Of a DNA stretch of 64,000 nt, positions 2,592 to 64,000 are shown piece by piece (the first letter of the stretch is position 1; the number at the start of each line of letters is the position of its first letter). Source of the DNA: Escherichia phage BEU50; the sequence record OM632671.1, one strand, 5' to 3'. The translations under genes and the position numbers were made by a program. Under the pieces are notes generated by a model. The model had not been told where the DNA came from and searched no databases. It worked only from the letters and a program-made list of their open reading frames with translations.

Positions 2592-3080
2592 ATGAATATA
2601 TTTGAAATGCTTCGTAATGACGAAGGTCTTAGACTGACTTTATACAAAGACACCGAAGGCTTTTGGACGATTGGCATAGGCCATTTAGTAACAAAGAACC
2701 CGTCTTTAGCCGTAGCTAAAGCTGAACTTGACAGAATGATCGGACGTAAATGCAACGGTACAATTACCCTTGATGAGGCTGAAAAGCTATTTAATGAAGA
2801 CGTTGATAAAGCCGTTCGCGGAATCTTGGGTAATGCTAAACTTAAACCGGTATATGATTCTTTAGATGCGGTTCGTCGTTGTGCATTGGTCAATATGGTC
2901 TTCCAAATGGGTGTAGCAGGCGTCGCCGGTTTTACTAATTCTCTTCGTATGCTTCAACAGAAACGTTGGGATGAAGCGGCAGTAAATCTAGCCCAATCTA
3001 AATGGTATCGTCAGACACCTAATCGCGCGAAACGTGTAATCTCAACATTTAAAACAGGAACTTGGAAAGCGTATATATGA
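2592..3080 (+). CDS. e: lysozyme (endolysin)
   Basis: MNIFEMLR...GIGHL...[13 protein letters not shown] matches T4 lysozyme along its length; ORF-track start 2580 is GTG. Confidence 0.95.
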
Positions 3081-3358
3081 AAACATATAGTGAATTTTTA
3101 TCAGAATCTATTCTTAACGAAGCTACTGACACATTTGCAACTAAGCTAGGTGCAGCTTTGGTTGAAGCTGAAAGTCTATTAGCACGTATTTCTGAACTTG
3201 CTAGTAAGATAGATACTCGCAAATTTGAACGTACCAGCGATATCGCTAAGCTTGAAGCTTTGTTACGTATGTGCGATAAACCGGAAGAAATCGCTAAGAA
3301 CGGCTCGTTAATGAAACAACGTCTTGAAAAATATATTTCAGGCGCTTCAGAAAAATAG
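3077..3358 (+). CDS. internal-protein-like protein with capsid targeting sequence
   Basis: N-terminus [10 protein letters not shown] resembles T4 IP targeting sequence MKTYQEFIAE; ATG overlaps e stop (ATGA). Confidence 0.55.
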
Positions 3359-3359
3359 T

Positions 3360-3412
3360 GTTTACTTCCTCCAAGGACTTTGATACTATACATTCATCAA
3401 CTACTTGGAGGA
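3360..3412 (+). promoter_or_regulatory. early promoter inside inverted repeat (upstream of denV)
   Basis: GTTTAC 3360-3365; arms TCCTCCAAG (3367-3375) and CTTGGAGGA (3404-3412), distal arm is the SD. Confidence 0.5.
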
Positions 3413-3416
3413 AATT

Positions 3417-3830
3417 ATGACTCGTATCAATTTAACACTTGTTTCTGAACTGACTGACCAACATCTTATGGCTGAGTATCGTGAATTACCACGCGTATTT
3501 GGTGCAGTCCGTAAACATGTTCAAAACGGTAAACGTGTAAAGGATTTTAAAATCTCTCCAACATTTATCTTAGGCACAGGTCACGTAACATTCTTTTACG
3601 ACAAACTCGAATTTTTACGTTTACGTCAAATCGAGCTAATCGCTGAATGTTTGAAACGTGGTTTCAAAATCAAGGACACGACAGTCCAGGATATTTCCGA
3701 CATCCCTGCCGAATTTCGTAATAATTATGTCCCGTCCGAAGCGTCCATTGCGATAAGTCAAGCACGCTTAGATGAAAAAATTGCTCAACGTCCGACTTGG
3801 TACAAATACTATGGTAAATCAATTTACTAA
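3417..3830 (+). CDS. denV: endonuclease V, pyrimidine-dimer DNA glycosylase
   Basis: [12 protein letters not shown]...[11 protein letters not shown] matches T4 DenV; ORF-track start 3405 is TTG. Confidence 0.95.
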
Positions 3831-5854: not shown

Positions 5855-6217
5855 ATGAAAGCATATCAAATTCTTGAAGGTGCACATAAAGGCACTATTT
5901 ATTTTGAAGACAGTACTCAAGCCCGGATTATTGTCTCTAAGACTTTTAAAGAAGACGCTATTGTAGACCCGGAAATTTTCTACGGTTTGCATGCTCGTGA
6001 AATTGAAATTGAACATCAACCTAAAGTTAAAATTGAAGGTGGTCAACACCTGAACGTTAACGTTCTGCGTCGTGAAACTCTGGAAGATGCAGTTAAGCAT
6101 CCGGAAAAATATCCGCAGCTGACCATCCGTGTATCCGGATATGCAGTTCGCTTTAACTCTCTGACTCCGGAACAGCAGCGCGACGTTATCGCTCGTACCT
6201 TTACTGAGAGTCTATAA
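5855..6217 (+). CDS. autonomous glycyl radical cofactor (GrcA/YfiD-like)
   Basis: C-terminal [59 protein letters not shown] with RVSGY glycyl-radical motif. Confidence 0.85.
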
Positions 6218-6441
6218 TGGCTAAATTGATTATAGAAGGGTCTGAAGATGTTTTAAAATGTTTTGCCGCCTGGTTTAGTTGCTCAGGCGAGCAATCATTC
6301 ATTGAAGCATTTAGAATGGGTGATATTACTGGAAACTATCCGACAACTGATATCACTGTACATGGATATGGTATTAATGAGCCTATCCAATTGGTCGAAT
6401 ATGACCTTGCCACCGATGAGGAAATTCCTTATGTCGATTGA
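6217..6441 (+). CDS. hypothetical protein (74 aa)
   Basis: ORF track. Confidence 0.45.
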   Translation: MAKLIIEGSEDVLKCFAAWFSCSGEQSFIEAFRMGDITGNYPTTDITVHGYGINEPIQLVEYDLATDEEIPYVD

Positions 6442-6697
6442 AGACATCAAAGGCTACAAGCCGCATACCGATGATAAAATCGGTAAAGTGAACGCTATTA
6501 AAGATGCTGAAGTCCGTCTTGGATTGATGTTTGATGCTCTGATTGAAGAAGCATATATCTTGAAAGAAAATGAAACAGAGCAACAAACCAAAGAAGATAT
6601 GGATGCAGTGCAGGCTCTTAAGTATGCTAAGCAACATCTAAAAGAAGCCAGCATGTGGGCATGTCGTGCGGTATTTCGACCTGAGGAAAAATACTAA
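6431..6697 (+). CDS. hypothetical protein (88 aa)
   Basis: Start moved to ATG 6431, which overlaps the upstream stop. Confidence 0.45.
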   Translation: MSIEDIKGYKPHTDDKIGKVNAIKDAEVRLGLMFDALIEEAYILKENETEQQTKEDMDAVQALKYAKQHLKEASMWACRAVFRPEEKY

Positions 6698-6912
6698 TGG
6701 CTTCTACTATTACTGGGTTATTGGACTTCCAAGAAAAGGTCAACAAAATTTGTAGTGAATACTTAAAGTATCTTGAAGAAGACCTTGAAGATTGTAAGGA
6801 AGAAGGCGAAGAAGACTATGCTGACCAGCGTCGCCGCCAAATCGAAGAGATGAGGCATTTCGCCAATATGGTATCTAAAGAATCTTGGGCTTTAACTCCG
6901 TTTTATCAATAA
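6697..6912 (+). CDS. hypothetical acidic protein (71 aa)
   Basis: TAATG overlap. Confidence 0.45.
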   Translation: MASTITGLLDFQEKVNKICSEYLKYLEEDLEDCKEEGEEDYADQRRRQIEEMRHFANMVSKESWALTPFYQ

Positions 6913-6916
6913 AGTA

Positions 6917-6967
6917 GTTTACTTCTCCTCTAGTTGTGTTACTATAGACCTGTCAACTAGAGGAGAA
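6917..6967 (+). promoter_or_regulatory. early promoter inside 14-bp inverted repeat (upstream of regB)
   Basis: GTTTAC 6917-6922; arms TTCTCCTCTAGTTG (6923-6936) and CAACTAGAGGAGAA (6954-6967). Confidence 0.55.
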
Positions 6968-6973
6968 ATCAAA

Positions 6974-7432
6974 ATGACTATCAATTCGGAAGTTTTTATC
7001 CGCCGTAATAAACTCCGTCGAATCTTTGAAACGGAGTTCCGCAAAATAAATGCCAGTATAAAAGACGCTGCAAAGTCTCTTGGACTACCAGGCTTTCATA
7101 TCAAGTATTCTCAACATCTCTTAGATCGTGCTATCCAGAGAGAAATAGATGAGAATTACGTTTTTGAATTATTTCGTAAAGTAAAAAATCATGTTAAAGA
7201 AGTTGCAGAATTTTTATCAATGCCGGCACGTCCAGATGTTGATGAAGATTTTGTCGAAGGTGTCGAATATCGCCCGGGCCGTTTAGAAATAACTGATGGA
7301 AATCTTTGGTTGGGACTTACAGTTTGTCGCGAAAATCCGGCATTCAAAATGAAGACTCTTCAATGCAGAATGGCTATTATTAACAGTAAACGACTACCAG
7401 GAAAAGCTTCTAAAGCAGTGATTAAAATCTAG
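6974..7432 (+). CDS. regB: RegB site-specific endoribonuclease
   Basis: MTINSEVFIRRNKLRR...YSQHLLDRAIQREIDE matches T4 RegB. Confidence 0.9.
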   Translation: MTINSEVFIRRNKLRRIFETEFRKINASIKDAAKSLGLPGFHIKYSQHLLDRAIQREIDENYVFELFRKVKNHVKEVAEFLSMPARPDVDEDFVEGVEYRPGRLEITDGNLWLGLTVCRENPAFKMKTLQCRMAIINSKRLPGKASKAVIKI

Positions 7433-7440
7433 AGGTAAAC

Positions 7441-7983
7441 ATGAGAAAAGCACTACTCGCTGGTCTATTTGCTCTTTCATTATCAGCACATAGCTCCGAG
7501 CATACTTTTAGTAATGTCCAACTCGATAACTTGAATTATGCTTATCAGTTTGGGGAACAGTTTTCTAAGGACGGAAAATTTAAAACGCATGAAAATATGC
7601 ATAAGAAAGGACTTGGATACATAATGGCCGCAATACTATGGCAGGAATCATCTGCCGGTATTAATCTTAAAGATAAGAAAGGTCACCATGCGTATGGAAT
7701 GTTCCAAAATTATCTACCAACAATGAGGGCAAGAATTAACCAGCTTGGTTATAATATGACTGATGCCCAAATTAAGAAAATGCTATCTAAGCGGTCTAAT
7801 TCAACCAGATGGGCTTATATCGAATTTTCTTATTGGTTAAATATACATAACGGGGATATAAGAAAAGCTATATCCTCATATAATGCGGGATGGAAGACAA
7901 GCGCTGGAAGTAAATATGCTTCTGAAGTCCTAGAAAAGGCTAATTACCTTAAATCAAATAAACTACTGGAAATAAAAGAATGA
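7441..7983 (+). CDS. secreted lytic-transglycosylase-like protein (SLT domain)
   Basis: Signal peptide; ILWQESS catalytic-Glu context and YNAG motif. Confidence 0.55.
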   Translation: MRKALLAGLFALSLSAHSSEHTFSNVQLDNLNYAYQFGEQFSKDGKFKTHENMHKKGLGYIMAAILWQESSAGINLKDKKGHHAYGMFQNYLPTMRARINQLGYNMTDAQIKKMLSKRSNSTRWAYIEFSYWLNIHNGDIRKAISSYNAGWKTSAGSKYASEVLEKANYLKSNKLLEIKE

Positions 7984-8327
7984 CCAAAATGTTGGCTTTA
8001 ATAGTTGGCTTGGTTTCATTTAACGCTCTTGCTAATACTACATATACTGATGTAACGGAGTATACAAACAGAACGGCGTCTGATTATTGTGGTAAAAGTC
8101 AAGAGTGTAAAGTAGATTTTTCACAAAAATTGTTATATGCGTATAAAGACGGAGAAAAAGATGGGGCGTCTAGTAGGTTCAAGGCGTCTACCTTAATTAA
8201 AAGATACTATAAAAAATGGCAAATATTAGAATGCTCTGTGGCGGAACCTAAAGATAAGGCAGCATGCAATTCTATGGTGGACCGTCTAGTTGACTCTTAT
8301 ACTAGAGGACTTGCAGCAAGTGATTAA
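7980..8327 (+). CDS. secreted hypothetical protein (115 aa)
   Basis: N-terminal signal-peptide-like segment, several Cys. Confidence 0.5.
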   Translation: MTKMLALIVGLVSFNALANTTYTDVTEYTNRTASDYCGKSQECKVDFSQKLLYAYKDGEKDGASSRFKASTLIKRYYKKWQILECSVAEPKDKAACNSMVDRLVDSYTRGLAASD

Positions 8328-8784
8328 AAACTATATCAAGGGCGATATTGTCGCCCTGTTTTCTAAAGGTAATAATATTGCTCATGGGTGTAATTGTTTT
8401 CATACAATGGGCGCCGGTGTAGCAGGCCAATTAGCAAAGGCTTATCCAAAAATTCTGGAAGCCGATAAACTTCAAACCGAATTCGGAGACAAGTCTAAAC
8501 TCGGGACTTATTCGGTTTATGAAAAATATTTTAAGACCCATAAAGCTTATTGCTTTAATCTTTATACACAGTTTGAGCCGGGACCTAATTTTGAGTACTC
8601 TGCTTTAATGAATTGTATAATAGAATTAAATGAATTCGGAAAGAATAAGATAATAAAGCCTGTAATTTATATGCCTAGAATTGGTGCAGGTATTGGTGGT
8701 GGAAACTGGGATATCATCGAAGAGATTTTAGATACGTATTCCACTAAACTAGAAATTGTGATTGTTGATTGGGAACCTAAATGA
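8320..8784 (+). CDS. macrodomain-like protein (ADP-ribose binding/hydrolase fold)
   Basis: IAHGCNCFHTMGAGVAGQL and IGAGIGGGNW resemble macrodomain motifs; no in-frame ATG before the motif, GTG 8320 proposed. Confidence 0.55.
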   Translation: MIKNYIKGDIVALFSKGNNIAHGCNCFHTMGAGVAGQLAKAYPKILEADKLQTEFGDKSKLGTYSVYEKYFKTHKAYCFNLYTQFEPGPNFEYSALMNCIIELNEFGKNKIIKPVIYMPRIGAGIGGGNWDIIEEILDTYSTKLEIVIVDWEPK

Positions 8785-8963
8785 AATTAACTAAAGAAGA
8801 GAAAGCTAAATTGTTCGAACTTATCCATGACCTATTGGATGAGCAAGCAGCCACCAATGCGTATGATGAATATGCTCCTTTAACAGATGAAGAATATCAA
8901 GCATTGATGGAATCATTTGACAGGAAAGAACAAGAACTCATTGACTACGTGAATTCACTATAA
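8781..8963 (+). CDS. hypothetical protein (60 aa)
   Basis: ATGA overlap. Confidence 0.4.
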   Translation: MKLTKEEKAKLFELIHDLLDEQAATNAYDEYAPLTDEEYQALMESFDRKEQELIDYVNSL

Positions 8964-8972
8964 GGGGCTCTT

Positions 8973-9554
8973 ATGGCTAGTTTAATTTTTACATATGCCG
9001 CTATGAACGCCGGTAAGTCTGCTTCATTACTTACTGCCGCACATAACTATAAAGAACGTGGCATGGGTGTATTAGTTCTTAAACCGGCTATTGATACTCG
9101 TGATTCAAAAGGTGAAATAGTCTCTCGTATTGGTATTCGTCAGGATGCCAATATAATTACAAAAGACATGGATATCTTTGAATTCTATAAATGGGCTGCA
9201 GCACAAAAGGATATTCACTGTGTATTTGTTGACGAAGCTCAGTTCTTAACTACTGAAAAGGTGTATCAACTTAGTCGTATTGTTGACGTATACAATGTGC
9301 CGGTAATGGCATATGGACTACGAACAGATTTTAAAGGTAATCTATTTGAAGGTTCTCAAGCATTAATGGCTATTGCCGATAAGCTTGTTGAACTTAAAGG
9401 TGTCTGTCATTGTGGTAAAAAGGCCACAATGGTAGCTAGAGTCACGGAAGACGGACTTCCAATTACAGATGGCAGTCAAATTGAAATTGGTGATACTGAT
9501 AGATATGTGTCATTATGCCGGAAGCATTGGAATGATTTGACAGGATTGTTATAA
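8973..9554 (+). CDS. tk: thymidine kinase
   Basis: NAGKSASLL P-loop, VDEAQFL, C-terminal Zn-ribbon cysteines. Confidence 0.95.
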   Translation: MASLIFTYAAMNAGKSASLLTAAHNYKERGMGVLVLKPAIDTRDSKGEIVSRIGIRQDANIITKDMDIFEFYKWAAAQKDIHCVFVDEAQFLTTEKVYQLSRIVDVYNVPVMAYGLRTDFKGNLFEGSQALMAIADKLVELKGVCHCGKKATMVARVTEDGLPITDGSQIEIGDTDRYVSLCRKHWNDLTGLL

Positions 9555-10109: not shown

Positions 10110-10115
10110 TTTACT

Positions 10116-10143
10116 AGCCCCTTCCGAAAGGTTGGGGCTTTTT
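10116..10143 (+). terminator. rho-independent terminator
   Basis: AGCCCC...GGGGCT hairpin followed by TTTTT. Confidence 0.6.
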
Positions 10144-10154
10144 GGCATCTATCA

Positions 10155-10205
10155 GTTTACTTCTCCTCAGGTTGTGTTATAGTAAACCTTACTTACTAGA
10201 GGAGA
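10155..10205 (+). promoter_or_regulatory. early promoter with imperfect inverted repeat
   Basis: GTTTAC 10155-10160, TATAGT 10178-10183. Confidence 0.45.
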
Positions 10206-10210
10206 ACGTT

Positions 10211-10390
10211 ATGACACGTAAAGAAAAAATTTCTAAGTTAATGTTTTTGATTGAAGAGTACGCTAATGCGGTATCTGATTGGGAAAATGCTCATGGTTGC
10301 GAAGATGGAGACATCGACATTAACAGAGCTATGAAAAAGATGGCTGATGCCCACACCGAATTGCAAATGTATGTTAACGAGATTATGTGA
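10211..10390 (+). CDS. hypothetical protein (59 aa)
   Basis: ATG 10211 after GAGGAGAA. Confidence 0.4.
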   Translation: MTRKEKISKLMFLIEEYANAVSDWENAHGCEDGDIDINRAMKKMADAHTELQMYVNEIM

Positions 10391-10397: not shown

Positions 10398-10604
10398 ATG
10401 CTTTACGATTATACTGGAAAATCTGAAGACGGTGTACTTGAACTTTTACCTGAAAGCGCTGAAGATGATGATATGGTGGCGATGTTTTGTAAAAATGGCC
10501 CTGGGGATAAGGGATGGATTTATCTTCGTCAAGAAAATGACTTAATTGTTTTGGACCCTAAACAAGTTGAAGAACTTTATCAACATTTAAAACACAATCG
10601 GTAG
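10398..10604 (+). CDS. hypothetical acidic protein (68 aa)
   Basis: ATG 10398 after GAGGA. Confidence 0.4.
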   Translation: MLYDYTGKSEDGVLELLPESAEDDDMVAMFCKNGPGDKGWIYLRQENDLIVLDPKQVEELYQHLKHNR

Positions 10605-10642
10605 TTTACAACTTGGTAGGACTATGTTATAGTAGTCCTACC
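10604..10642 (+). promoter_or_regulatory. early promoter inside 9-bp perfect inverted repeat
   Basis: GTTTAC 10604-10609; GGTAGGACT (10615-10623) / AGTCCTACC (10634-10642). Confidence 0.5.
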
Positions 10643-10661
10643 AAAACAAATGGAGAACAAA

Positions 10662-10772
10662 ATGAAACTTTTGCTTATCGCTTATGTTGTAGTACAATAC
10701 AATTATCCGATGTTTACGTATAACATGGTAAATGGTGTAATGAATCTTATTGAAGCGAGTATGGTAAAATGA
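10662..10772 (+). CDS. small hydrophobic peptide (36 aa)
   Basis: ATG after GGAGAA; below ORF-track cutoff. Confidence 0.25.
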   Translation: MKLLLIAYVVVQYNYPMFTYNMVNGVMNLIEASMVK

Positions 10773-15475: not shown

Positions 15476-15510
15476 GTTTACAAGGTCTATGGTTATGTTA
15501 TTATAGACCT
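15476..15510 (+). promoter_or_regulatory. early promoter inside 8-bp inverted repeat
   Basis: GTTTAC 15476-15481; AGGTCTAT / ATAGACCT; TATTAT 15499-15504. Confidence 0.5.
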
Positions 15511-15531
15511 ATCAACTACTGGAGGTAAAAC

Positions 15532-16059
15532 ATGAACGCTAAAGATATTTTCAACCTGGTAAATTATAACGACGGTAAATTTAAATCTGAAGCACAAAGC
15601 AAGTTCTTTAATGACGTTGCTTATGGTAACGAGATTACCGTGGACGGAGGTCAGATTTTCAAATCTCGCTGGAATTGGATTGTTATCATCGATTCAGTTG
15701 GAATTGTGGAAGTCTACAAAAACACTAACAAAAAACGTACATTATTCTGGTCTCGTGAAACTAACGAGCAGTACAAAAAGGATAAAGCATCTCGTTTATC
15801 CAAAGTAACCCAGGAAGATATCGAGTTTATCAAGAAAGATATCGAGATGTACGAAAATTTAATCGCTGAAGACCAGGCAGTACTCGATAAGTTTGATGAA
15901 ATTAAAGCTTCTCGTGAAATCCCTGACTTCATGAAAGAAACAGTAAACGAACGATACGCTCTCACTTCAGAACGTATTGCAAACTATACAAAACAGAAAG
16001 CAGAACGTATTAGTACTCTTCGGAAATTTGAAGAACGTTTAAAGACGGTTCACGCATAA
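15532..16059 (+). CDS. hypothetical protein (175 aa)
   Basis: ATG after GGAGGT. Confidence 0.5.
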   Translation: MNAKDIFNLVNYNDGKFKSEAQSKFFNDVAYGNEITVDGGQIFKSRWNWIVIIDSVGIVEVYKNTNKKRTLFWSRETNEQYKKDKASRLSKVTQEDIEFIKKDIEMYENLIAEDQAVLDKFDEIKASREIPDFMKETVNERYALTSERIANYTKQKAERISTLRKFEERLKTVHA

Positions 16060-16121: not shown

Positions 16122-17117
16122 ATGAGCATTACATCTGATGCGGTAAAACATGAAATTAACGGTTTATGTGCTTCACAGATTAAAGTGTGGTTTAAAGACC
16201 ATAATGATCGCAGAGCACTTAATTATGAGCAAATTGCTATCCAAGTTCATCAATTACTGACTAGTAAATTTGATTTTCATATGCCGTCTGAAATCTATAC
16301 TAATCTGCCGCGAGCGCTTATTAAAGCGTGTAAAGGTTACGGAAAATCAATGGCTGATGGAATCTTCAGCGCGCTGAATAAACTTAACGTTCTGTCGATG
16401 ATTAACTCTAACAACATCCTGCGTAATCTAGGACGTACTGATTTGTTCGGTCGTGAACAGTGTAAAATGCCTTTGAAATGGATTGTTGCTCATCTTAACG
16501 AGAACCAAACACGTTTTATGGCCGTATCAGCACGCTTACAAATGGGTCTAGATCGTCAGATGAACTTTAAAACTCATCCATGTTATTCAGGTTCAACAGA
16601 CTTTTATAAATGTGAGCTTCAAAAGGTTGGTGGCAAAACTGTCTTAGTAGTTCGTGTAACGTTTGAAGGACGACGTCAAGGATATTTTAACCTAATCGGC
16701 TCTGGTCTTAAACATTGTGGATTTATCGACGAAGTTGATATCAAGCGAGACGGCACTGGATATCGTATTGGATATGTTTGTACTCTTAAAGAAGAGATTT
16801 CAGGACCAGCTCCAGGACTAAAAGATGTTAGATATAAAGATGAGCTCGTTGAAGAAATAAAAGAAGTTGAATATGATATCAACCAAGAAGATGCTCTTAA
16901 AGACCTTATTGATGAACTAAACCAAGACGTTATTCCGGTTCAGAAATTTGAATCAAAACATGCTGAGCAAATCAAATACTTTGAAGCTTTGATTAACGAA
17001 CTTAATGTAACTATTCAACAGACCGACGATGAAATCTCACGATTAGCAGGCTTAAACGGTAAAAATAAAACAGAACGAGCTAATCTTATTCAAGTAGTAA
17101 AACTTCTTAAGGAATGA
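16122..17117 (+). CDS. hypothetical protein with C-terminal coiled coil (331 aa)
   Basis: Own promoter and SD. Confidence 0.55.
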   Translation: MSITSDAVKHEINGLCASQIKVWFKDHNDRRALNYEQIAIQVHQLLTSKFDFHMPSEIYTNLPRALIKACKGYGKSMADGIFSALNKLNVLSMINSNNILRNLGRTDLFGREQCKMPLKWIVAHLNENQTRFMAVSARLQMGLDRQMNFKTHPCYSGSTDFYKCELQKVGGKTVLVVRVTFEGRRQGYFNLIGSGLKHCGFIDEVDIKRDGTGYRIGYVCTLKEEISGPAPGLKDVRYKDELVEEIKEVEYDINQEDALKDLIDELNQDVIPVQKFESKHAEQIKYFEALINELNVTIQQTDDEISRLAGLNGKNKTERANLIQVVKLLKE

Positions 17118-17146
17118 TGTACAACCAAGGATGGTTGGAGTATAAT
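17116..17146 (+). promoter_or_regulatory. early promoter, CAACCAAGGATGGTTGG subfamily
   Basis: TGTACA..CAACCA-agga-TGGTTG..TATAAT 17141-17146. Confidence 0.5.
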
Positions 17147-18136: not shown

Positions 18137-18166
18137 GTTTACAACCAAGGATGGTTGGAGTATAAT
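18137..18166 (+). promoter_or_regulatory. early promoter, CAACCAAGGATGGTTGG subfamily
   Basis: GTTTAC 18137-18142, TATAAT 18161-18166. Confidence 0.55.
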
Positions 18167-24923: not shown

Positions 24924-24952
24924 GTTTACATCCTCAATAGACGTGTTAAGAT
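24924..24952 (+). promoter_or_regulatory. early promoter
   Basis: GTTTAC 24924-24929. Confidence 0.4.
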
Positions 24953-24980
24953 TAAACCATCTACTATAGAGGAAAATAAA

Positions 24981-25163
24981 ATGACAATTGAAGATAAAGA
25001 AATTAAGGTTGACCAGTACTATTCTGTCAACGGTAATGCAGTACAGATAACCAGAGTTTCAAGCCTGGATGTTTGGTACCGTTTAATCAAATATCCAGAA
25101 ATTGGCGAAATGCTTTGTGACCGTGGTATCTTCTGTTCAATTGCGAAGGAAATTAAGCCATGA
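24981..25163 (+). CDS. hypothetical protein (60 aa)
   Basis: ATG after GAGGAAAA; ORF-track start 24861 is TTG. Confidence 0.35.
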   Translation: MTIEDKEIKVDQYYSVNGNAVQITRVSSLDVWYRLIKYPEIGEMLCDRGIFCSIAKEIKP

Positions 25164-26049: not shown

Positions 26050-26058
26050 TAATGTACA

Positions 26059-26093
26059 ACGATAGGAAGACATGTTATTATCTTTCCTATCGT
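26059..26093 (+). promoter_or_regulatory. promoter-like element inside an 11-bp imperfect inverted repeat
   Basis: ACGATAGGAAGA...TCTTTCCTATCGT flanking CATGTTATTA. Confidence 0.4.
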
Positions 26094-26113
26094 CTTAAAA
26101 TGAGGAAAATATC

Positions 26114-26353
26114 GTGGCCCAAGAATTAGATTTTATCAAATTCAAAAAACACCTCGACGTTAAAATTGGGGATTCAATTGTTAGGATTGAGTATGACATT
26201 TTAACAGATGCTATTACTGTTAGTTGTGATGGAAATAGTTTCAGCTTCGATACAACCGAAAACAAGTACCCAATCTATAAAGGCATCTTTGATATGGGTG
26301 TTGATATTACTCCACGTGATACAAATTACTTACTTTTCATGCTTAAAAAATAG
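26114..26353 (+). CDS. hypothetical protein (79 aa)
   Basis: GTG start after GAGGAAAA. Confidence 0.45.
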   Translation: MAQELDFIKFKKHLDVKIGDSIVRIEYDILTDAITVSCDGNSFSFDTTENKYPIYKGIFDMGVDITPRDTNYLLFMLKK

Positions 26354-26382
26354 TATACAAACTCTTGAGAGATGAGTATAAT
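26354..26382 (+). promoter_or_regulatory. early promoter, copy B of a duplicated cassette
   Basis: GTATAC..TATAAT 26377-26382; inverted repeat GAGAGA/TCTCTC. Confidence 0.5.
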
Positions 26383-26401
26383 TCTCTCGTTGGATAATAA
26401 A
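26356..26401 (+). repeat. 46-bp promoter-leader cassette, copy B
   Basis: Near-identical to 192..237. Confidence 0.6.
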
Positions 26402-26419
26402 ATAACCGAGGAAAATAAT

Positions 26420-26752
26420 ATGTCTACTAAAATCAAAAACGTAGTTAATTCTTTCGCTTTCGATAAAGTTGTTGCTCTTCTGGAATCCGGCAATATTGTT
26501 ACTCCTCAAGTTCTTGACGCGTGGGAATTCCGTCTTTATGAAATCATGCAAAAACACGACCAGAAAATTGGACGTAATTCTATTCGTGAAATTCTAGTAC
26601 AATATATTCTTTCTGAATTTGACGTTGCTGCATTTGGTGTTGAATCTAAAGCTTATCAGAAACATGAAATCTCTGAAAAGACTATCCGTCGTATGAAAAA
26701 TCAACGTAAGAAAAAATTCGTTGACCTGAAAATTGTTAAGGCGGTAAAATGA
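26420..26752 (+). CDS. hypothetical protein (110 aa)
   Basis: ATG 26420 after GAGGAAAA; the ORF-track ATG at 26372 lies inside the -10 hexamer. Confidence 0.5.
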   Translation: MSTKIKNVVNSFAFDKVVALLESGNIVTPQVLDAWEFRLYEIMQKHDQKIGRNSIREILVQYILSEFDVAAFGVESKAYQKHEISEKTIRRMKNQRKKKFVDLKIVKAVK

Positions 26753-26976: not shown

Positions 26977-27242
26977 AATTAACTCGAATCAGTATAACTG
27001 AAGAAAAGCTGGGCGAATTTTATGTTGACGAATACATGAAAGTCACGTATTTTCCATTCGTTAAAGGTGTTGGTTTTTGGGAAACTCATGTATCTCAATT
27101 AAACGAAGGCGACTATAACGAAACACATGAGAACTTTTTAGATTTTCTTTATAATGCCGGTCTTACTGAGCTTTATATCGATATCCATGAGTTCAAACGT
27201 TTAATGGAAAAAGTGTTTCAGGCTTATTGTTTGCTCCGATAG
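26973..27242 (+). CDS. hypothetical protein (89 aa)
   Basis: ATGA overlap. Confidence 0.45.
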   Translation: MKLTRISITEEKLGEFYVDEYMKVTYFPFVKGVGFWETHVSQLNEGDYNETHENFLDFLYNAGLTELYIDIHEFKRLMEKVFQAYCLLR

Positions 27243-27249
27243 TATCTCG

Positions 27250-27293
27250 TGCTTTAAGATAGGTCTCTAAATATTATGATATAATAGACCTAT
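27250..27293 (+). promoter_or_regulatory. promoter-like element with 8-bp inverted repeat upstream of gene 55
   Basis: TGCTTTAA box; ATAGGTCT / AGACCTAT arms flanking TATTAT and TATAAT. Confidence 0.4.
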
Positions 27294-27314
27294 GAATTGA
27301 GCCAAGAGGTACTT

Positions 27315-27872
27315 ATGACTGAACAAAAACCTAAAAATAACTATGTGAATAATAAAGAGCTTCTCGCTGCTATAATCGAGTGGAAAAAGGAGCTCTTAAA
27401 TAATAAAGACCCAAACAAAATTATTCGTCAGAATGATACCATCGGATTAGCAATTATGCTTATCGCCGAAGGCCTGTCCAAACGTTTCAACTTTTCAGGA
27501 TATACCCAGTCTTGGAAGCAGGAGATGATTGCAGATGGGATTGAAGCCTCTATTAAAGGTCTTCATAATTTCGACGAAACTAAGTACAATAACCCACATG
27601 CATACATAACTCGAGCTTGTTTTAATGCTTTTGTCCAACGTATCAAAAAAGAACGTAAGGAAGTTGCAAAGAAATATAGTTACTTCGTTCATAATGTCTA
27701 CGACAGTCATGACGATGATATGGTAGCGTTGGTAGATGAAACGTTTATTCAAGACATCTACGATAAAATGACGCATTATGAAGAATCCGCTTATAAAGCT
27801 CCTGGGGCTGAAAAGAAGGAAGTTGTTAGCGATTCGCCTAGTTTGGATTTTTTATATGAGGATGACAATTGA
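27315..27872 (+). CDS. 55: late-transcription sigma factor gp55
   Basis: 185 aa, [17 protein letters not shown]...[25 protein letters not shown] matches T4 gp55. Confidence 0.95.
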
Positions 27873-50138: not shown

Positions 50139-50144
50139 TAAAAA

Positions 50145-50164
50145 GGAGACTTCGGTCTCCTTTC
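50145..50164 (+). terminator. rho-independent terminator (UUCG tetraloop)
   Basis: GGAGAC-ttcg-GTCTCC then TTTC. Confidence 0.55.
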
Positions 50165-50167
50165 GGG

Positions 50168-50197
50168 GTTTACATCTTCCTCTAGGCATGATATGAT
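50168..50197 (+). promoter_or_regulatory. early promoter
   Basis: GTTTAC 50168-50173, TATGAT 50192-50197. Confidence 0.45.
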
Positions 50198-50226
50198 GTA
50201 CTTACACCAACCAAGAGGAAAACATT

Positions 50227-50601
50227 ATGAATATGTCTCAAGCAATTTTTACTGCAATCACCGAAAACACAACTGTTGAAGTAGTTTCTCCACTGGCAAC
50301 CTACGTTATTCTTGCTCCTAAAACTATTGTATCTCGTATGGAAAACATGGGCAAACGTATCGTACAAATAGTTGGAGCCGGAAATCAAAAACTTGATTAT
50401 CTACGAACCATCAAAGCTTATGAACATTTCCAACTCGAAAAAGGTTCTCCTATCCAGGTAGAACTCGTAAATGGTGATATCGTTCGAGCAATGTTCCATC
50501 ATTTCTATGCATTGAATGACCCATCTAAAGCGGTTCGTTTAATTGCATACGATGCAAACCAAAACGAAATCAACGCAGATATATCTAAATTACGTTTTTA
50601 A
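50227..50601 (+). CDS. hypothetical protein (124 aa)
   Basis: ATG after AAGAGGAAAA. Confidence 0.5.
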   Translation: MNMSQAIFTAITENTTVEVVSPLATYVILAPKTIVSRMENMGKRIVQIVGAGNQKLDYLRTIKAYEHFQLEKGSPIQVELVNGDIVRAMFHHFYALNDPSKAVRLIAYDANQNEINADISKLRF

Positions 50602-50650
50602 GTTTACTTCTCCAGTAGTTGTGTTATTATAGATCTATCAACTACTGGAG
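50602..50650 (+). promoter_or_regulatory. early promoter inside 12-bp perfect inverted repeat
   Basis: GTTTAC 50602-50607; CTCCAGTAGTTG (50610-50621) / CAACTACTGGAG (50639-50650); TATTAT in the loop. Confidence 0.55.
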
Positions 50651-50656
50651 AACAAA

Positions 50657-50974
50657 ATGAAAACCATCGATTGTAAAGCAGAATTTAAGATTTTTTATCA
50701 CGGTTCAAGTAGTTCAGCTAACATCGAAAACATGCTTTGTCCTCCTGAGGAAACAGGAGTTCTGTCTGAAACTGGACGTAAGAAAAACTTGGATCGTGTA
50801 TTCTTTACTGAAGATATCGGTTTAGCAAAGATTTATGCAGGACGAGCAGCACGCTCTTATGGAGGTGAACCACGTCTCTACCGAGTAATTTCTCCGGTAG
50901 ATGTAGTTCAAATGAATGATACTAAAGGCGCTACAGTTTATCACGCTGAATGGGCATTTTGCGAGGAAATATGA
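50657..50974 (+). CDS. hypothetical protein (105 aa)
   Basis: ORF track. Confidence 0.5.
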   Translation: MKTIDCKAEFKIFYHGSSSSANIENMLCPPEETGVLSETGRKKNLDRVFFTEDIGLAKIYAGRAARSYGGEPRLYRVISPVDVVQMNDTKGATVYHAEWAFCEEI

Positions 50975-51202: not shown

Positions 51203-51230
51203 CTTTCTATCAACTACAGAGGAAATTGAA

Positions 51231-51913: not shown

Positions 51914-51948
51914 GTTTACATTATAGATGGACTATAGTATAGTAGTCC
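51914..51948 (+). promoter_or_regulatory. early promoter with inverted repeat
   Basis: GTTTAC 51914-51919; GGACTA / TAGTCC arms. Confidence 0.45.
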
Positions 51949-51972
51949 TATCAAATCAACTAAGGAGTTAAA

Positions 51973-52266
51973 ATGAAAAAGTTATCATTGGCAGCAATCT
52001 TACTTGCAGTATCATGTGCACCGGCTCCAGTTACGGCAGGTTATGATAAAGACCTCTGTGAGTGGTCAATGACTGCAAATCAAGAAGATGTTGAACAACA
52101 AATCTTCTCTGATATCATGAACATCACTAAACGAGACCGTCCTAATATGGTTAATAAAGTTGTTGAACAACTTAAGTCTGGCGGTATCATGCAGTACAAC
52201 TATGTTTTGTATTGTGACCCTAATTTCGATAACAAAGATATCGTAACCGAAATCACAGGTGAATAA
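51973..52266 (+). CDS. sp: Spackle-like periplasmic superinfection-exclusion protein
   Basis: 97 aa with signal peptide; AGYDKDLCEWSMTA...GGIMQYNYVLYCD matches T4 Sp as I recall it. Confidence 0.7.
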   Translation: MKKLSLAAILLAVSCAPAPVTAGYDKDLCEWSMTANQEDVEQQIFSDIMNITKRDRPNMVNKVVEQLKSGGIMQYNYVLYCDPNFDNKDIVTEITGE

Positions 52267-57111: not shown

Positions 57112-57272
57112 AAGAGAAATTTAAAGAGAAATTCTTACTAGAAATCAAGGAAAAAGACTTTGAGACATGGTATCGAATGGTGAAAGGGTTGACATTGCTT
57201 TTTAAAGCATCCTTATTCATGTTAGAACAACCTGGTCCTGATGGTCCTTTAGTAGGAAAGCTTAAAAAGTAG

Positions 57273-57300
57273 TTTACATTCCCTCCTCTCGTGTTATGAT
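57273..57300 (+). promoter_or_regulatory. early promoter
   Basis: GTTTAC 57273-57278, TATGAT 57295-57300. Confidence 0.45.
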
Positions 57301-57327
57301 AGGCTTATCTTTAAATGGAGGTCTATC

Positions 57328-57909
57328 ATGACATGTCAATCTGAACTTCAAGAACGTGAATACCTAACAAATCTGATTGATAGCAAATTCACCCGCCAAG
57401 AACAAAACATTCTCTGGGCTTGCACCGATTCTAAGGAAGACCCGGATTTCCACTATGAATTAGACCATCTTGTTCGTAAGCATATGACTTCTACAGTACC
57501 AGTAGAACTCTACCGTGGTGTAACTCCAGAAGAAGTAGAACGTCTTTCCCTTCTTTCTGTTGGATGCCATTGGTCTCCTGGACGAGTAACATCGTTCACA
57601 ACTGATTTCAGTACAGCTCGTCAATTCTCCGGGAGTTGGGAATATCAGACGTACACTATTCTTAGTCTCAGGAATGCTCCATTCATTTTTGATTACTACC
57701 AAAACATGATTAACATTGTACTTGCCGGAAAGAACCCTAAGCATGTTATGGAAGAAACTCGTATCGATGTCCTAGATATGATTGAATCTGAACAAGAGTA
57801 CATGGTCTCAGGCATCTCTCGATTTGAGATTGTGGAAATTGAAGACTTAGAATATGACCCTTTATCTCGATTATACAAAATCATTCATTTGAAAATGTTG
57901 AATTTTTAG
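57328..57909 (+). CDS. ADP-ribosyltransferase, ModB/ModA-like
   Basis: YRG (Arg), STS-like segment and EQEYMV (ExE-like) motifs; paralogous to next gene; between soc and dda. Confidence 0.65.
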   Translation: MTCQSELQEREYLTNLIDSKFTRQEQNILWACTDSKEDPDFHYELDHLVRKHMTSTVPVELYRGVTPEEVERLSLLSVGCHWSPGRVTSFTTDFSTARQFSGSWEYQTYTILSLRNAPFIFDYYQNMINIVLAGKNPKHVMEETRIDVLDMIESEQEYMVSGISRFEIVEIEDLEYDPLSRLYKIIHLKMLNF

Positions 57910-57938: not shown

Positions 57939-57966
57939 ACCTTTATCAACCACAGGAGAAACCTAA

Positions 57967-58727: not shown

Positions 58728-59474
58728 ATGTTATCAAATAATAAAATTAACAAAATCAATCGTCGTCTTGACCACACCAGAGCTTCTGCGAAGAGACGCT
58801 CTAAGGATTTTAACTTAGACTTTAATTACCTTAAAAACATTCTTGATCAAAAGGTCTGCGCTTACTCAGGTGAATCTTTTAATAACTCTGTTGAAGGTGA
58901 GAAATTATCCTTAGAACGTTTTAATAATGATATAGGCTACATTAAAGGTAATGTTATCCCAGTTAAGAAAAAATATAACACGGCTCGTTCTGATTTAACA
59001 TTAGAAGAACTTATTGGGAAACGTGATGCCATTGCAAGACGTATCGCTAATCCTTCTGTCAGTAAAGTAGAGAAACTTAATCTTGACGAGAAGAAATGGG
59101 CCCAAATTAAAAAGGTTTATGATACTATTTTAAAAATCCGAGCAAAACGTGAAAATCGTGTTAAGCATATGGCGAACATGATGAAAAATCAACCTTTATC
59201 TAACGAATCTAAACTTAGAATTGTTGCTTTGAAAGCACGCATTAATGGCTCACATCAAGCACTAGGCCATGAACTTACTAAACTCAACGTTCTTCTTAAA
59301 GGCTCTGACTGGAAAACTAAAACTAAATTAACTGACGCTGAATCGCTTTTCGATACATATGATAAAGTTATCCAAGGTCTGCAACGTTTTGAAAAGATTG
59401 GTTTCATTGGTAAATTAAAATTGAAACGTGGCTTACCACTTAGCGCATCATTATTCCAACTGATTAAAGGTTAA
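58728..59474 (+). CDS. srd: Srd-like protein (by position)
   Basis: 248-aa basic protein between the mod genes and dda; synteny only. Confidence 0.5.
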   Translation: MLSNNKINKINRRLDHTRASAKRRSKDFNLDFNYLKNILDQKVCAYSGESFNNSVEGEKLSLERFNNDIGYIKGNVIPVKKKYNTARSDLTLEELIGKRDAIARRIANPSVSKVEKLNLDEKKWAQIKKVYDTILKIRAKRENRVKHMANMMKNQPLSNESKLRIVALKARINGSHQALGHELTKLNVLLKGSDWKTKTKLTDAESLFDTYDKVIQGLQRFEKIGFIGKLKLKRGLPLSASLFQLIKG

Positions 59475-59476
59475 TT

Positions 59477-59788
59477 ATGGTTTATGTATATGCAATAGTT
59501 TATCGAGATATGGAAGGATTTACTGTCCCGGTTCCACTTGATGAGCATCGTCCTGCAGTATTTTTTAGAAAGGATATTGCAGATAAAGTTTTCGATACTT
59601 TGAAAACACAGTATAAAACAGATTTAAAAATGGGAGTTCTAAGAATGGTCGAAACTCCGCGTAAGTTCTGGTTTAATAAGCTTGAAATGAAACACGTTAA
59701 ACTAGATGCGGAGACGCAAAGATTGTATCAACGAATCCTGGACACAGGCCGTATTGTTAGTATTCCAATTGCAGGGACTTTACGATGA
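59477..59788 (+). CDS. hypothetical protein (103 aa)
   Basis: Immediately upstream of dda. Confidence 0.5.
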   Translation: MVYVYAIVYRDMEGFTVPVPLDEHRPAVFFRKDIADKVFDTLKTQYKTDLKMGVLRMVETPRKFWFNKLEMKHVKLDAETQRLYQRILDTGRIVSIPIAGTLR

Positions 59789-61098
59789 CATTTGATGATT
59801 TGACTGAAGGTCAGAAAAACGCCTTCAACGTTGTTATGAACGCTATTAAAGAAAAGAAACATCACGTAACTATTAATGGGCCTGCTGGTACAGGTAAAAC
59901 AACCCTTACTAGATTCATCGTTGAAGCCCTTATTTCTTCTGGAGAATCAGGTATTATTTTAGCAGCCCCTACACATGCTGCTAAAAAGGTTCTAAGCAAA
60001 CTTGCTGGTCAAGAAGCATCGACTATTCATAGCATTCTTAAAATCAACCCAACTACATACGAAGAAAACGTATTGTTTGAACAGAAAAAGGTTCCCGACT
60101 TAGCCTTGTGCCGTGTACTGTTATTTGATGAAGCGTCAATGTGCGACCGTTCTCTGTTTAAAATAATGTTAGCTAGTATCCCTAAATGGTGTACAGTAAT
60201 TGGAATCGGCGACCGATGCCAGATTCGACCGGTAGACCCAGGCGAATCAACTGCGTATCTAAGTCCTTTCTTCACTCACAAAGACTTCGTGCAATGCAAC
60301 CTTACAGAAGTTAAACGTAGCAATGCACCAATTATTGATGTTGCGACTGATATTCGTAATGGCAAATGGATTTACGATAAAGTAGTTGATGGGCACGGTG
60401 TTCATGGATATACAGACCTTAAATCGTATATGATGAACTATTTTAACGTTGTTAAAACTCCTGAAGACCTTTTCGAAAATCGAATGATGGCATTCACAAA
60501 TAAGTCAGTGGACAAGTTAAATTCAATTATTCGCCGAAAACTTCTTGAAACAGAAAAACCATTTATTAAAGACGAAGTCATTGTTCTACAAGAGCCATTT
60601 ACTAAGACATATAAGCTAGATGGTAAAAATATGACCGAAATGCTTTTCAATAACGGGCAATTCGTTCGTATTCGAGATGCTGTAGAAACGTCTACATTCG
60701 TTAAAGCACGTGGTGTTTCAGGCGAATATATGATACGATACTGGAATCTTACAGTAGAAACATATGGGGATGATGAAGAATATATCCGCGAAGATATAAA
60801 GGTTATTTCTTCTGAAGAAGAGCTTTATAAATTCAATTTGTTTTTGGCTAAGACTGCAGAAACATACAAATTCTGGAATAAAGGTGGTAAAGCTCCATGG
60901 AGCGAATTCTGGGATGCTAAACGTATGTTCACTAAGGTGAAGGCACTACCTGTATCAACCTTCCATAAGGCCCAGGGTATGTCTGTTGACACGGCCTTTG
61001 TTTATACACCGTGTATCCATTATGCTGATTCAGAATTAGCTAAACAGTTATTGTATGTCGGCACGACTCGTGGTCGTTTTGACGTCCATTTTATTTGA
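59785..61098 (+). CDS. dda: Dda DNA helicase (SF1B)
   Basis: Walker A GPAGTGKTT, Walker B LLFDEASM. Confidence 0.95.
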   Translation: MTFDDLTEGQKNAFNVVMNAIKEKKHHVTINGPAGTGKTTLTRFIVEALISSGESGIILAAPTHAAKKVLSKLAGQEASTIHSILKINPTTYEENVLFEQKKVPDLALCRVLLFDEASMCDRSLFKIMLASIPKWCTVIGIGDRCQIRPVDPGESTAYLSPFFTHKDFVQCNLTEVKRSNAPIIDVATDIRNGKWIYDKVVDGHGVHGYTDLKSYMMNYFNVVKTPEDLFENRMMAFTNKSVDKLNSIIRRKLLETEKPFIKDEVIVLQEPFTKTYKLDGKNMTEMLFNNGQFVRIRDAVETSTFVKARGVSGEYMIRYWNLTVETYGDDEEYIREDIKVISSEEELYKFNLFLAKTAETYKFWNKGGKAPWSEFWDAKRMFTKVKALPVSTFHKAQGMSVDTAFVYTPCIHYADSELAKQLLYVGTTRGRFDVHFI

Positions 61099-61107
61099 GA
61101 GAAAATT

Positions 61108-61785: not shown

Positions 61786-61789
61786 AACA

Positions 61790-61819
61790 GTTTACAACCA
61801 AGGACGGTTGGAGTATAAT
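61790..61819 (+). promoter_or_regulatory. early promoter, CAACCAAGGA subfamily
   Basis: GTTTAC 61790-61795, TATAAT 61814-61819. Confidence 0.55.
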
Positions 61820-61850
61820 CTTTCTATCTTAACCAAACAGGAAAAACATT

Positions 61851-62346: not shown

Positions 62347-62378
62347 GTTGTACATCCAAGGATGGATGGAGTATAGTG
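62347..62378 (+). promoter_or_regulatory. early promoter, CCAAGGATGG subfamily
   Basis: TTGTAC..CCAAGGATGGATGG..TATAGT. Confidence 0.45.
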
Positions 62379-63296: not shown

Positions 63297-63345
63297 GTTT
63301 ACTTCTCCTCTGGTTTTGGTATTATAACCATATCAACCAGAGGAG
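63297..63345 (+). promoter_or_regulatory. early promoter inside 11-bp perfect inverted repeat
   Basis: GTTTAC 63297-63302; CTCCTCTGGTT (63305-63315) / AACCAGAGGAG (63335-63345). Confidence 0.55.
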
Positions 63346-63351
63346 AATAAT

Positions 63352-63876
63352 ATGTTAGTTTACCGCGTAGAACGTAGTTTTTGTACTCAACGTGAATCAT
63401 TACCAGGAATTGCTATCGAAGACGGTAAAGCCGTCAGAATTTGGGAAACCTCTTGGAATAAAGAACCTCGCTCACCATACGGTTGGTCGGGCACCGACAA
63501 CTCTGAAGAAACATGGGAGTTCCTTGATAAACATGGAATAATCTCAGGTAATTTCTACCATCACGGCGACAACTATAACGTCCCTAATCGTCCTACAGTA
63601 AATGAAGACAAACTCCTTGAACAAAATATCTTAAGATACTATAGAATTGAGCACACATTTGAATTGAGTGAAGATTGGGCTCAAGGGTTCTATTTTGGAT
63701 TTGAAAGTGTTGACGCGGTTTATGCATGGTTTGATGACCAGGTGGATGTTGAACTCTTGAAAGCTAAAGGATACTACATCGCGGTCTATGAAGCACCTGA
63801 TTTCATCCTCGGAAGTTGTCAATTAATGTTCAGACGTTCATTGGCAGAACAAGTTGATTTTATTTTGCTAAAATGA
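63352..63876 (+). CDS. hypothetical protein (174 aa)
   Basis: ATG after AGGAGAA. Confidence 0.5.
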   Translation: MLVYRVERSFCTQRESLPGIAIEDGKAVRIWETSWNKEPRSPYGWSGTDNSEETWEFLDKHGIISGNFYHHGDNYNVPNRPTVNEDKLLEQNILRYYRIEHTFELSEDWAQGFYFGFESVDAVYAWFDDQVDVELLKAKGYYIAVYEAPDFILGSCQLMFRRSLAEQVDFILLK

Positions 63877-63910
63877 TGTACAACAACTATGGTCTATGAT
63901 ACTATAGACC
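63876..63910 (+). promoter_or_regulatory. early promoter with 7-bp inverted repeat
   Basis: ATGTAC; GGTCTAT / ATAGACC arms; TACTAT. Confidence 0.45.
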
Positions 63911-63933
63911 TATCAAAACAAGAGGAGAATATT

Positions 63934-64000
63934 ATGAAACGTCAAATCATTAAAAACGTAACTACTGATTCAAACATCGATGAGTTTGAAGATGTTCTGT
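63934..64000 (+). CDS. 5' end of a gene truncated by the window edge
   Basis: ATG after GAGGAGAA; open to the end of the window. Confidence 0.4.
   Translation, partial: MKRQIIKNVTTDSNIDEFEDVL

Follow-up and report, generated by a model that had tools for sequence, protein, structure and literature searches.

The closest described relatives of the elements reported here are hairpins of T4-type phages that sequester the ribosome-binding site (RBS) and are bypassed by transcription from an internal promoter. Such regulation has been described for T4 e, soc, 49, I-TevI-III and segB and for Aeh1 mobE, the internal promoter being a late promoter throughout (PMC3014915; PMC2988022), and in a 2010 review the genes under such control are described as "all late genes" (PMC2988022). 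In the e, soc, 49 and I-TevI hairpins of T4, the Shine-Dalgarno sequence (SD) or the AUG is paired in RNA initiated upstream, and the RNA made from the internal promoter lacks the 5' strand of the helix and can be translated (PMC3014915, PMC2988022).

The other closely related system is the PeSL, an early promoter with a stem-loop that is followed by the SD and the ATG, the stem often lying between the -35 and -10 elements or over the -10 (PMC2839356, PMC4122927). In the PeSLs of RB49/phi1, PST/T4 and nt-1/KVP40 (Arbiol 2010; Comeau 2014), the published stems precede the promoter, overlap its -10 or lie in its -35/-10 spacer, and the SD is a separate 3' element. The PeSL concept also comprises an AT-rich tract ahead of the -35, a concentration of the repeats in plastic regions beside indels or replacements, and mini-circles that arise through recombination between two cassettes. 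The roles published for PeSLs are those of terminators and recombination linkers, and the SD is drawn outside the stem (PMC2839356, PMC4122927). In a reporter, termination at one RB49 PeSL stem-loop equalled that at rrnB T1 (PMC2839356), and PeSL-like AT-rich elements at T-even internal-protein loci are attributed to Repoila 1994, as cited in PMC2839356.

The promoter-embedded hairpins that we describe here resemble the late-gene hairpins in the pairing of the SD or AUG, as indicated by predicted structures, opening energies and covariation. They differ from them in three respects. The late promoter TATAAATA was not found at the cassettes, whose promoters are of the early sigma-70 type, or of the middle (MotA) type at gene 55; the -35/-10 spacer or the discriminator doubles as the 5' arm; and the arrangement would not postpone translation but limit it to the first minutes of infection. 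Since the principle is established for late genes, the early-gene case is an extension and not a new kind of mechanism. With the PeSLs, the cassettes share an intergenic early promoter, an overlapping stem-loop, an SD and start codon at the 3' end, and repetition around early regions, apparently at junctions of conserved and variable genes; the differences are that here the 3' arm consists of the SD and leader, that no T-run follows, and that the stems are AT-rich rather than polyG/polyC. A sequence-only reading of this DNA had named T4 lysozyme and the PeSLs as precedents, and neither is aptly cited: at T4 lysozyme, soc, 49 and I-TevI the promoter is a late one (PMC2988022), and the PeSL papers place the SD outside a stem to which they give terminator and recombination roles and no gating of translation (PMC2839356, PMC4122927).

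Results

The window, by which we mean the whole 64-kb stretch of DNA that was analysed, represents the early region of a T-even phage of the RB69 type (Mosigvirus), oriented along early transcription. Over bases 6000-9000 the identity is 99.1% with Escherichia phage NRG-P0074 and 98.3% with the minus strand of RB69 at 59279-62280. According to the RB69 annotation, the focal element lies between RB69ORF117c and regB, and the gene order in the rest of the window is e, denV, tk, nrdD, 55, 46, 45, 43, uvsX, 41, 61, modA/B, dda and the motB region. An Rfam scan of the whole window (1-64000) returned no family at gathering score.

The focal element at 6917-6967 is borne out base for base as the sequence-only reading had drawn it, with a -35 followed by an inverted repeat whose loop holds the -10 and whose 3' arm holds GGAG. 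The -35 of the regB early promoter, GTTTAC (6917..6922; all features of this cassette are on the plus strand), starts 5 nt past the stop codon of the upstream ORF (6910-6912). The 5' arm TTCTCCTCTAGTTG (6923..6936), composed of an anti-SD and an extension, is within the -35/-10 spacer, and the -10 TACTAT (6940..6945) is in the hairpin loop. The 3' arm CAACTAGAGGAGAA (6954..6967) holds the regB SD GGAG (6962-6965) and makes up most of the ~22-nt leader of the downstream gene, which the RB69 annotation identifies as regB, encoding a site-specific endoribonuclease (6974..7432, plus strand, ATG at 6974). The stem consists of 14 perfect base pairs closing a loop of 17 nt. The usual 7-nt spacing predicts a transcription start near 6952, and the 5' arm TTCTCCTCTAGTTG would be confined to RNA reading through from upstream.

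The same anatomy had been claimed for eight loci. It is complete at four of them (3360, 6917, 50602 and 63297), where the SD of the downstream gene is in the 3' arm as proposed; at 10604, 15476 and 63876 the 3' arm does not contain the SD, and at 27250 the SD is in a different helix. In the denV cassette (3360..3419; here and below on the plus strand), the -35 is at 3360-3365, the 5' arm TTCCTCCAAG at 3366-3375, the -10 at 3384-3389 and the 3' arm CTTGGAGGAA at 3404-3413, giving 10 bp, with the ATG at 3417. The cassette of the RB69ORF040c homologue (50602..50659) has 14 bp, formed by TTCTCCAGTAGTTG (50608-50621) and CAACTACTGGAGAA (50639-50652) around a -10 at 50625-50630, with the ATG at 50657, and the motB.2 cassette (63297..63354) has 13 bp, formed by TTCTCCTCTGGTT (63303-63315) and AACCAGAGGAGAA (63335-63347) around a -10 at 63320-63325, with the ATG at 63352. 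The strong cassettes have in common a T4-type early promoter (GTTTAC, 16-17 bp, TAnnAT) whose spacer consists of the anti-SD TTCTCC... and 5-9 further bases complementary to the SD and most of the leader. Their stems of 10-14 bp span the -10, and the ATG is 4-7 nt past the 3' arm. The 25 nt upstream of the cassettes are 52-84% A+T, compared with ~63% for the window, and are clearly AT-rich only at 6917 and 50602.

A window-wide scan identified four similar cassettes that the earlier reading had missed, at 10155, 24924, 50168 and 57272. The mobD.2a cassette (10155..10213) is of 8+5 bp, with an outer helix of TTCTCCTC (10161-10168) and GAGGAGAA (10199-10206), an inner 5-bp helix, and the ATG at 10211. 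The cassette preceding a 60-aa ORF (phrog_2283; 24924..24983) pairs 9/10 bp between TCCTCAATAG (24931-24940) and CTATAGAGGA (24964-24973). A weak cassette before the RB69ORF041c homologue (50168..50229) pairs TTCCTCT with AGAGGAA over 7 bp and has a GC-rich terminator-like stem upstream. The modB cassette (57272..57330) has a second geometry, in which the SD-AUG segment GGAGGTCTATCATG (57317-57330) is paired with ATGATAGGCTT (57296-57306), a stretch made up of the -10 region and discriminator.

A leader motif, (C)TATCAAC(T/C)AC..GGAG, is shared among the first transcribed bases of leaders at 3396-3416, 6950-6973, 15506-15531, 50634-50656, 51204-51230, 57940-57966 and 63329-63351, with or without a complementary 5' arm. 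The arm is missing at, for example, 15476 and 51174, and L026 retains the same 3' sequence with the 5' arm absent. Because the leader is kept in both situations, it seems to be conserved in its own right, with the 5' arm adapting to the leader.

The near-perfect symmetry that had been called striking is beyond chance. A perfect spacer-to-SD helix of at least 10 bp is present in 4 of 30 promoter cassettes, compared with 0.007 expected when spacers are shuffled and a maximum of one such helix in 1000 shuffles, which rules out a chance origin of the promoter hairpins. The strong-cassette repeats are among the longest non-overlapping inverted repeats of the 64-kb window.

The energy needed to open the RBS, over -14 to +2 around the ATG, was computed for two RNA contexts, read-through RNA and RNA starting 7 nt after the -10 (own start). 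The respective predicted values are 20.2 and 2.8 kcal/mol for motB.2, 18.8 and 3.8 for the RB69ORF040c homologue, 18.0 and 3.0 for regB, 17.0 and 2.4 for modB (57328), 16.0 and 4.2 for gene 55, 12.0 and 3.0 for denV, and 11.4 and 3.1 for mobD.2a. Among 97 plus-strand gene starts (median 6.0), these seven genes rank 1-4, 6, 9 and 11 for occlusion, ranks 1-4 being held by motB.2, the RB69ORF040c homologue, regB and modB. Rank 5 of 97 is held by the RBS of the lysozyme gene e (2592-3080; 16.4 kcal/mol in read-through RNA), a positive control and the textbook case, its occlusion being that of the known late-promoter hairpin. In the predicted folds, the 14-bp regB helix dominates the long RNA and the surroundings of the SD are unstructured in the short RNA; the 10-14 bp hairpins are predicted to have energies of about -18 to -24 kcal/mol. 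The candidate starts at 19561, 40462, 56287 and 1385 also have high predicted RBS opening energies of 11-14.6 kcal/mol and no recognised embedded promoter, and some of these starts may be miscalled.

Non-random, covarying hairpins of this anatomy are conserved across T4-like phages. Among regB orthologues encoded by IMG/VR T4-like contigs, the helix is kept with differing sequences, the arm pairs being CTAGTTG/CAACTAG, CTTGACTG/CAGTTAAG (T4, with two G.U pairs), CTTTATG/CATAAAG, TGTAAG/CTTACA, TTTTAGT/ACTAAAA and CATTTGATTGTG/CACAAACAAATG. When the orthologues are anchored on CTCC/GGAG, the mean helix extension is 4.7 bp, versus 1.9 +/- 0.4 for shuffled partners. A search conditioned on the 5' half only (GTTTACWTCTCC, 10-12 nt, TAYWAT) gave a bimodal outcome, with chance matches pairing over 3-6 bp and 31 distinct cassettes pairing over 8-14 bp (29 of them over 9-14); in all but one of the 31, the SD is in the 3' arm and the ATG is 4-8 nt further on. 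Covariation was scored on 45 distinct cassettes, chosen by their 5' half alone, as equal-length constructs anchored on CTCC and GGAG, which were used instead of MAFFT alignments of whole cassettes because the latter left the SDs out of register. In the correct register, 69% of pairs are standard and the covariation score is 0.241, versus 0.130 +/- 0.013 for shuffles (0/500 reach 0.241) and 0.04-0.115 for slid registers. An out-of-register count, which serves as a control, gave 44.6% pairing, the correct register being at slide +2. One single pair position is GC in 15 cassettes, CG in 7, UA in 6 and AU in 2, and within the window compensated changes are found between the paralogous cassettes of regB (CTCTAG/CTAGAG) and the RB69ORF040c homologue (CAGTAG/CTACTG). 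From these sequence comparisons we conclude that the hairpin is under selection.

The covariation also bears on whether the repeats act in DNA. The pyrimidine-rich spacer could be part of the promoter, or the arms could form a DNA hairpin or cruciform, with complementarity to the SD being incidental. GTTTAC(A/T)TCTCC does recur even where the helix is only 5-6 bp, and G.U and A.C oppositions inside helices number 3 versus 3, a strand-specificity count that is uninformative on the RNA or DNA level because most helices are perfect. However, the extension beyond the core covaries, the cassette loops are of 17-24 nt, a size unfavourable for cruciforms, and the second geometry puts the 5' arm elsewhere while still targeting the SD, so that an effect at the DNA level is highly improbable. 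G.U intermediates are seen in a few lineages, with two in T4 regB and a stepwise path from L160 through L137 to L166.

In T4, SD-sequestering helices are embedded in promoters of regB, modB, nrdC.8, 55, motB.2, denV, gene 1, e.8 and mrh.2; the regB promoter of T4 is known to be early. Five of these helices (regB, modB, motB.2, denV and 55) are orthologous to window cassettes and have different arm sequences. The second geometry, with the -10/discriminator segment as the 5' arm, is found at modB and, in many phages, at denV, for example as TATGAT-GTCCTCC pairing with GGAGGAC, and the T4 modB cassette folds like the modB cassette of the window. The second-geometry arm ends +5 to +7 after the -10, which, judged from promoter spacing in the sequence, is the last site that would allow the arm to be omitted from the promoter's own transcript. 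A third geometry places the 5' arm upstream of the MotA box, as at gene 55. In all three geometries (spacer, -10/discriminator, and upstream of the MotA box), the 5' arm is upstream of the expected start. In one 59-bp intergenic region the cassette promoter is the sole promoter, which we counted in favour of gating by promoter choice. Protein searches with motB.2 and modB gave three loci each, and Dda was taken as the anchor instead.

At gene 55, the sequence-only reading had placed the SD in a stem at a GTTTAC promoter (27250). The promoter is not of the GTTTAC type and the 8-bp inner stem is without the SD, but the SD is hidden by a separate outer 8-bp helix. In this cassette (27241..27317, plus strand), the outer helix of AGUAUCUC (27241-27248) and GAGGUACU (27306-27313) covers the SD and the inner stem is formed by 27259-27266 and 27286-27293, with the ATG at 27315. 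The promoter, also on the plus strand, consists of a MotA-box-like TGCTTTA (27250-27256) and a -10 TATAAT (27280-27285). The structure is therefore nested, the inner stem enclosing the -10 and the outer helix lying over the SD. The T4 middle-promoter starts P55 and P1 have been mapped at 40180 and 75393 (PMC2988021), and both fall between the arms of T4 helices that sequester the SD or AUG. Since the T4 P55 start lies between the arms of the homologous structure, the same gating is suggested for a middle promoter at gene 55.

The hairpins do not have the features of intrinsic terminators. In all stems that were checked no T-run follows (1-4 T in the following 8 nt), and a terminator scan of 1-20 kb flagged no cassette. 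The identification of the cassettes as intrinsic terminators was rejected, there being no GC-rich stem with a U-tract and the 1-20 kb scan being blank at the cassettes. Co-occurrence of a strong hairpin with a canonical upstream terminator was very rare, at 1/98 versus 45/441 (Fisher p = 0.001), a comparison of related samples that is indicative only. At some orthologous loci a terminator is found with little or no helix, as at regB in L017, L101 and L102 and at RB69ORF040c homologues in JS98-type phages. This exchange of terminator for helix fits with a common purpose, the insulation of the gene from upstream expression, by transcriptional or translational means. The cassettes would thus be equal to an intrinsic terminator plus promoter in intergenic position and in insulation; the difference is that they lack the GC-rich stem and U-tract, transcription is expected to run on, and the block would be on translation. 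Terminator-like GC stems with T-runs, at 10110-10154 (GCCCCTTCCGAAAGGTTGGGGCTTTTT) and 50139-50167 (GGAGACTTCGGTCTCCTTT), are directly upstream of the two weakest SD-pairing cassettes, and the strongest cassettes are without a terminator.

A PeSL-type explanation would hold that the stem-loop terminates or attenuates upstream transcription, that the ~55-bp cassette is mainly a recombination linker, and that SD pairing is secondary. The definition of the PeSL as early promoter and stem-loop followed by SD and ATG applies to the cassettes, and the RB49 stem-loop did terminate like rrnB T1 (PMC2839356). The window cassettes are near-repeats, JS98-type phages have ~90% identical cassettes before regB and denV, the flanks upstream of regB vary while the cassette and regB are kept, as with the differing upstream genes of L010 and L011, and an internal-head-protein gene is next to the denV cassette, as at T-even internal-protein loci (PMC2839356). 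We nevertheless consider this explanation unlikely. The absence of T-runs and of any terminator call in the 1-20 kb scan speaks against termination, the arms covary specifically to keep pairing in the SD region, and independent geometries converge on hiding the SD. The avoidance of terminator-bearing loci by strong hairpins fits substitution for a terminator and not identity with one, and a role in recombination is compatible with SD hiding without replacing it.

Indeed, the cassettes are dispersed near-repeats at gene junctions, repeated within the window, nearly identical at different genes of one genome, and flanked by upstream neighbours that vary between phages, and therefore they probably also serve as recombination linkers, by analogy with the role proposed for PeSLs. 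The JS98-type L095 has, in one genome, ~58 bp cassettes at 5254 and 7750, before denV and regB, that are ~90% identical; the T4 denV cassette (65355 region) resembles the L095 cassettes and the T4 regB cassette does not, a distribution that suggests copying or conversion between cassettes. The related phages L010 and L011 (~1400-1500) have the same regB cassette and regB with unrelated upstream genes, so that the cassette looks like a recombination junction, and in L011 two substitutions (TT to GG) cut the helix from 15 to 10 bp. The ORF at 3062-3355, just upstream of the denV cassette, matches an internal head protein family (phrog_3499), and T4 has ipII at the equivalent position. Here a cassette borders a variable gene, as it does at the T-even internal-protein loci of the PeSL papers.

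Discussion

We consider it probable that read-through RNA hides the SD and that RNA from the cassette's own promoter, lacking the 5' arm, is translatable. RNA polymerase arriving from an upstream promoter would transcribe both arms, and the resulting 10-14 bp hairpin would bury the SD so that 30S subunits could not load; RegB, which needs single-stranded GGAG, would likewise be unable to cut the buried site. Polymerase at the embedded promoter would start at the base of the 3' arm, ~7 nt downstream of the -10, yielding a transcript that has no 5' arm, a free SD, and a leader that is essentially the 3' arm itself. Translation of regB, denV, motB.2, modB and the other cassette genes would thereby depend on the early promoter of each gene and be insulated from transcription upstream, the hairpin doing the job that a terminator does elsewhere. 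Where transcription starts, that read-through RNA exists and that translation is blocked on it are inferred. On the evidence of opening energies, covariation and T4 conservation, the logic of the sequence-only reading is the best supported one at the four strong and the four newly found cassettes, has to be modified at gene 55, and fails at 10604, 15476 and 63876. A literature search for usable genome-wide start-site or termination maps of T4 or RB69 found none.

The upstream stop codons are 6-10 nt before the 5' arm, and therefore a ribosome terminating there might partly open the stem at its base, which is the anti-SD site, and could allow some coupled translation. If such coupling were the main effect, ribosomes ending the upstream ORF would open the hairpin and read-through RNA would be translated in proportion to upstream translation, and both the position of the stops and that of the anti-SD at the stem base would suit it. 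The footprint size of the ribosome is established, and a ribosome at the stop would reach no further than the initial few pairs of a 13-14 bp helix; the 10-nt gaps at regB and motB.2 leave the helix untouched, the gap at 10155 is 51 nt, and the 5' arm of gene 55 is inside the upstream coding region. We regard coupling as the main effect as distinctly improbable.

The mechanism that we favour, in which SD hiding restricts translation to own-promoter RNA, has to be weighed also against protection of the RNA. The main selected effect could be to shield the GGAG of early genes, in long transcripts, from RegB or other single-strand nucleases, so that polycistronic RNA with the downstream genes would survive. 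The RegB target is single-stranded GGAG followed by A-rich sequence, and folding of the RNA protects it (PMC3014915, PMC1702504). Agreement with the RegB consensus GGAGRAYARAA is good among the cassette SDs (50602, GGAGAACAAAA; 63297, GGAGAATAATA), and the focal cassette controls regB, whose own SD is known to be attacked by RegB in T4-related phages. However, the T4 denV SD is in a cassette and yet is without the RegB consensus, being RegB-resistant anyway, and the same design is used at late-promoter genes, where RegB is irrelevant. Sequence data alone cannot separate shielding from translational occlusion; we think it rather improbable that shielding is the main effect. Durand et al. (2006; PMC1702504) report that RegB cuts the T4 modB RNA in vivo although this RNA resists it in vitro, presumably owing to its fold, and therefore co-transcriptional events can beat folding.

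We tentatively extend the proposed mechanism, while rating the extension as somewhat less likely to hold than not, to a general T-even insulation rule for early, middle and late promoters. Promoter-embedded SD hairpins would unlock the RBS only on transcripts of the gene's own promoter, replacing a terminator in such a way that transcription runs on and translation is partitioned, and the GGAG hairpins would also set which RNAs RegB destroys. If true, this rule would explain individual dosage and a sharp immediate-early pulse among dense early genes with stacked promoters.

If read-through RNA is indeed translationally silent, then for a set of T-even early genes translation is decided by the promoter from which the RNA arose and not only by the presence of RNA, the set including the nuclease RegB, the ADP-ribosyltransferase ModB, DenV and MotB-region proteins. 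It would add an extra layer to the early/middle/late programme and explain hairpins that are conserved without terminator features, and the PeSL "mobile regulatory cassettes" would gain a translational function. In phage RNA-seq, RNA level would be no predictor of protein, and the design would be relevant to insulated expression units in engineered phages. The SD as the 3' arm, with covariation that maintains SD pairing, appears not to have been described before in the papers and reviews cited here. Valerie et al. (1986) reportedly remarked on stem-loops that precede several of the T4 ORFs of this region.

Not every promoter hairpin in the window fits with SD hiding. The promoter at 10604..10664 (plus strand) has a 12-bp stem (10613-10624 and 10633-10644) that overlaps the -10 and ends ~6 nt before the SD. 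In the nrdC.8 promoter (15476..15534, plus strand), the stem formed by AGGTCTAT (15483-15490) and ATAGACCT (15503-15510) is around the -10 and the SD is outside, unlike the T4 orthologue, which has an SD-sequestering helix. The promoter at 63876..63936 (plus strand), with an ATGTAC -35, has its -10 enclosed in a 7-bp stem, GGTCTAT/ATAGACC, that again leaves the SD outside; the stems at 15476 and 63876 are thus of 7-8 bp, of the AGGTCTAT/ATAGACCT type. The stems at 10604, 15476 and 63876 are not accounted for by the SD-hiding model. Since three of the eight hairpins named by the sequence-only reading leave the SD free, promoter-embedded hairpins must have some other function too.

Promoters with stems of 6-12 bp around or over the -10 that end before the SD are found at 10604-10664, 15476-15534, 26052-26116, 51914-51975, 63876-63936, 189-262 and 26353-26422. 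These SD-free stems have no T-run and are present only in read-through RNA, and their best match is the published PeSL layout. Four promoters with a near-identical spacer, (G/T)T(T/G)TACAACCAAGGATGGTTGGAGTATAAT, at 17117-17146, 18137-18166, 61790-61819 and 62348-62377, form a separate paralogous family without SD pairing.
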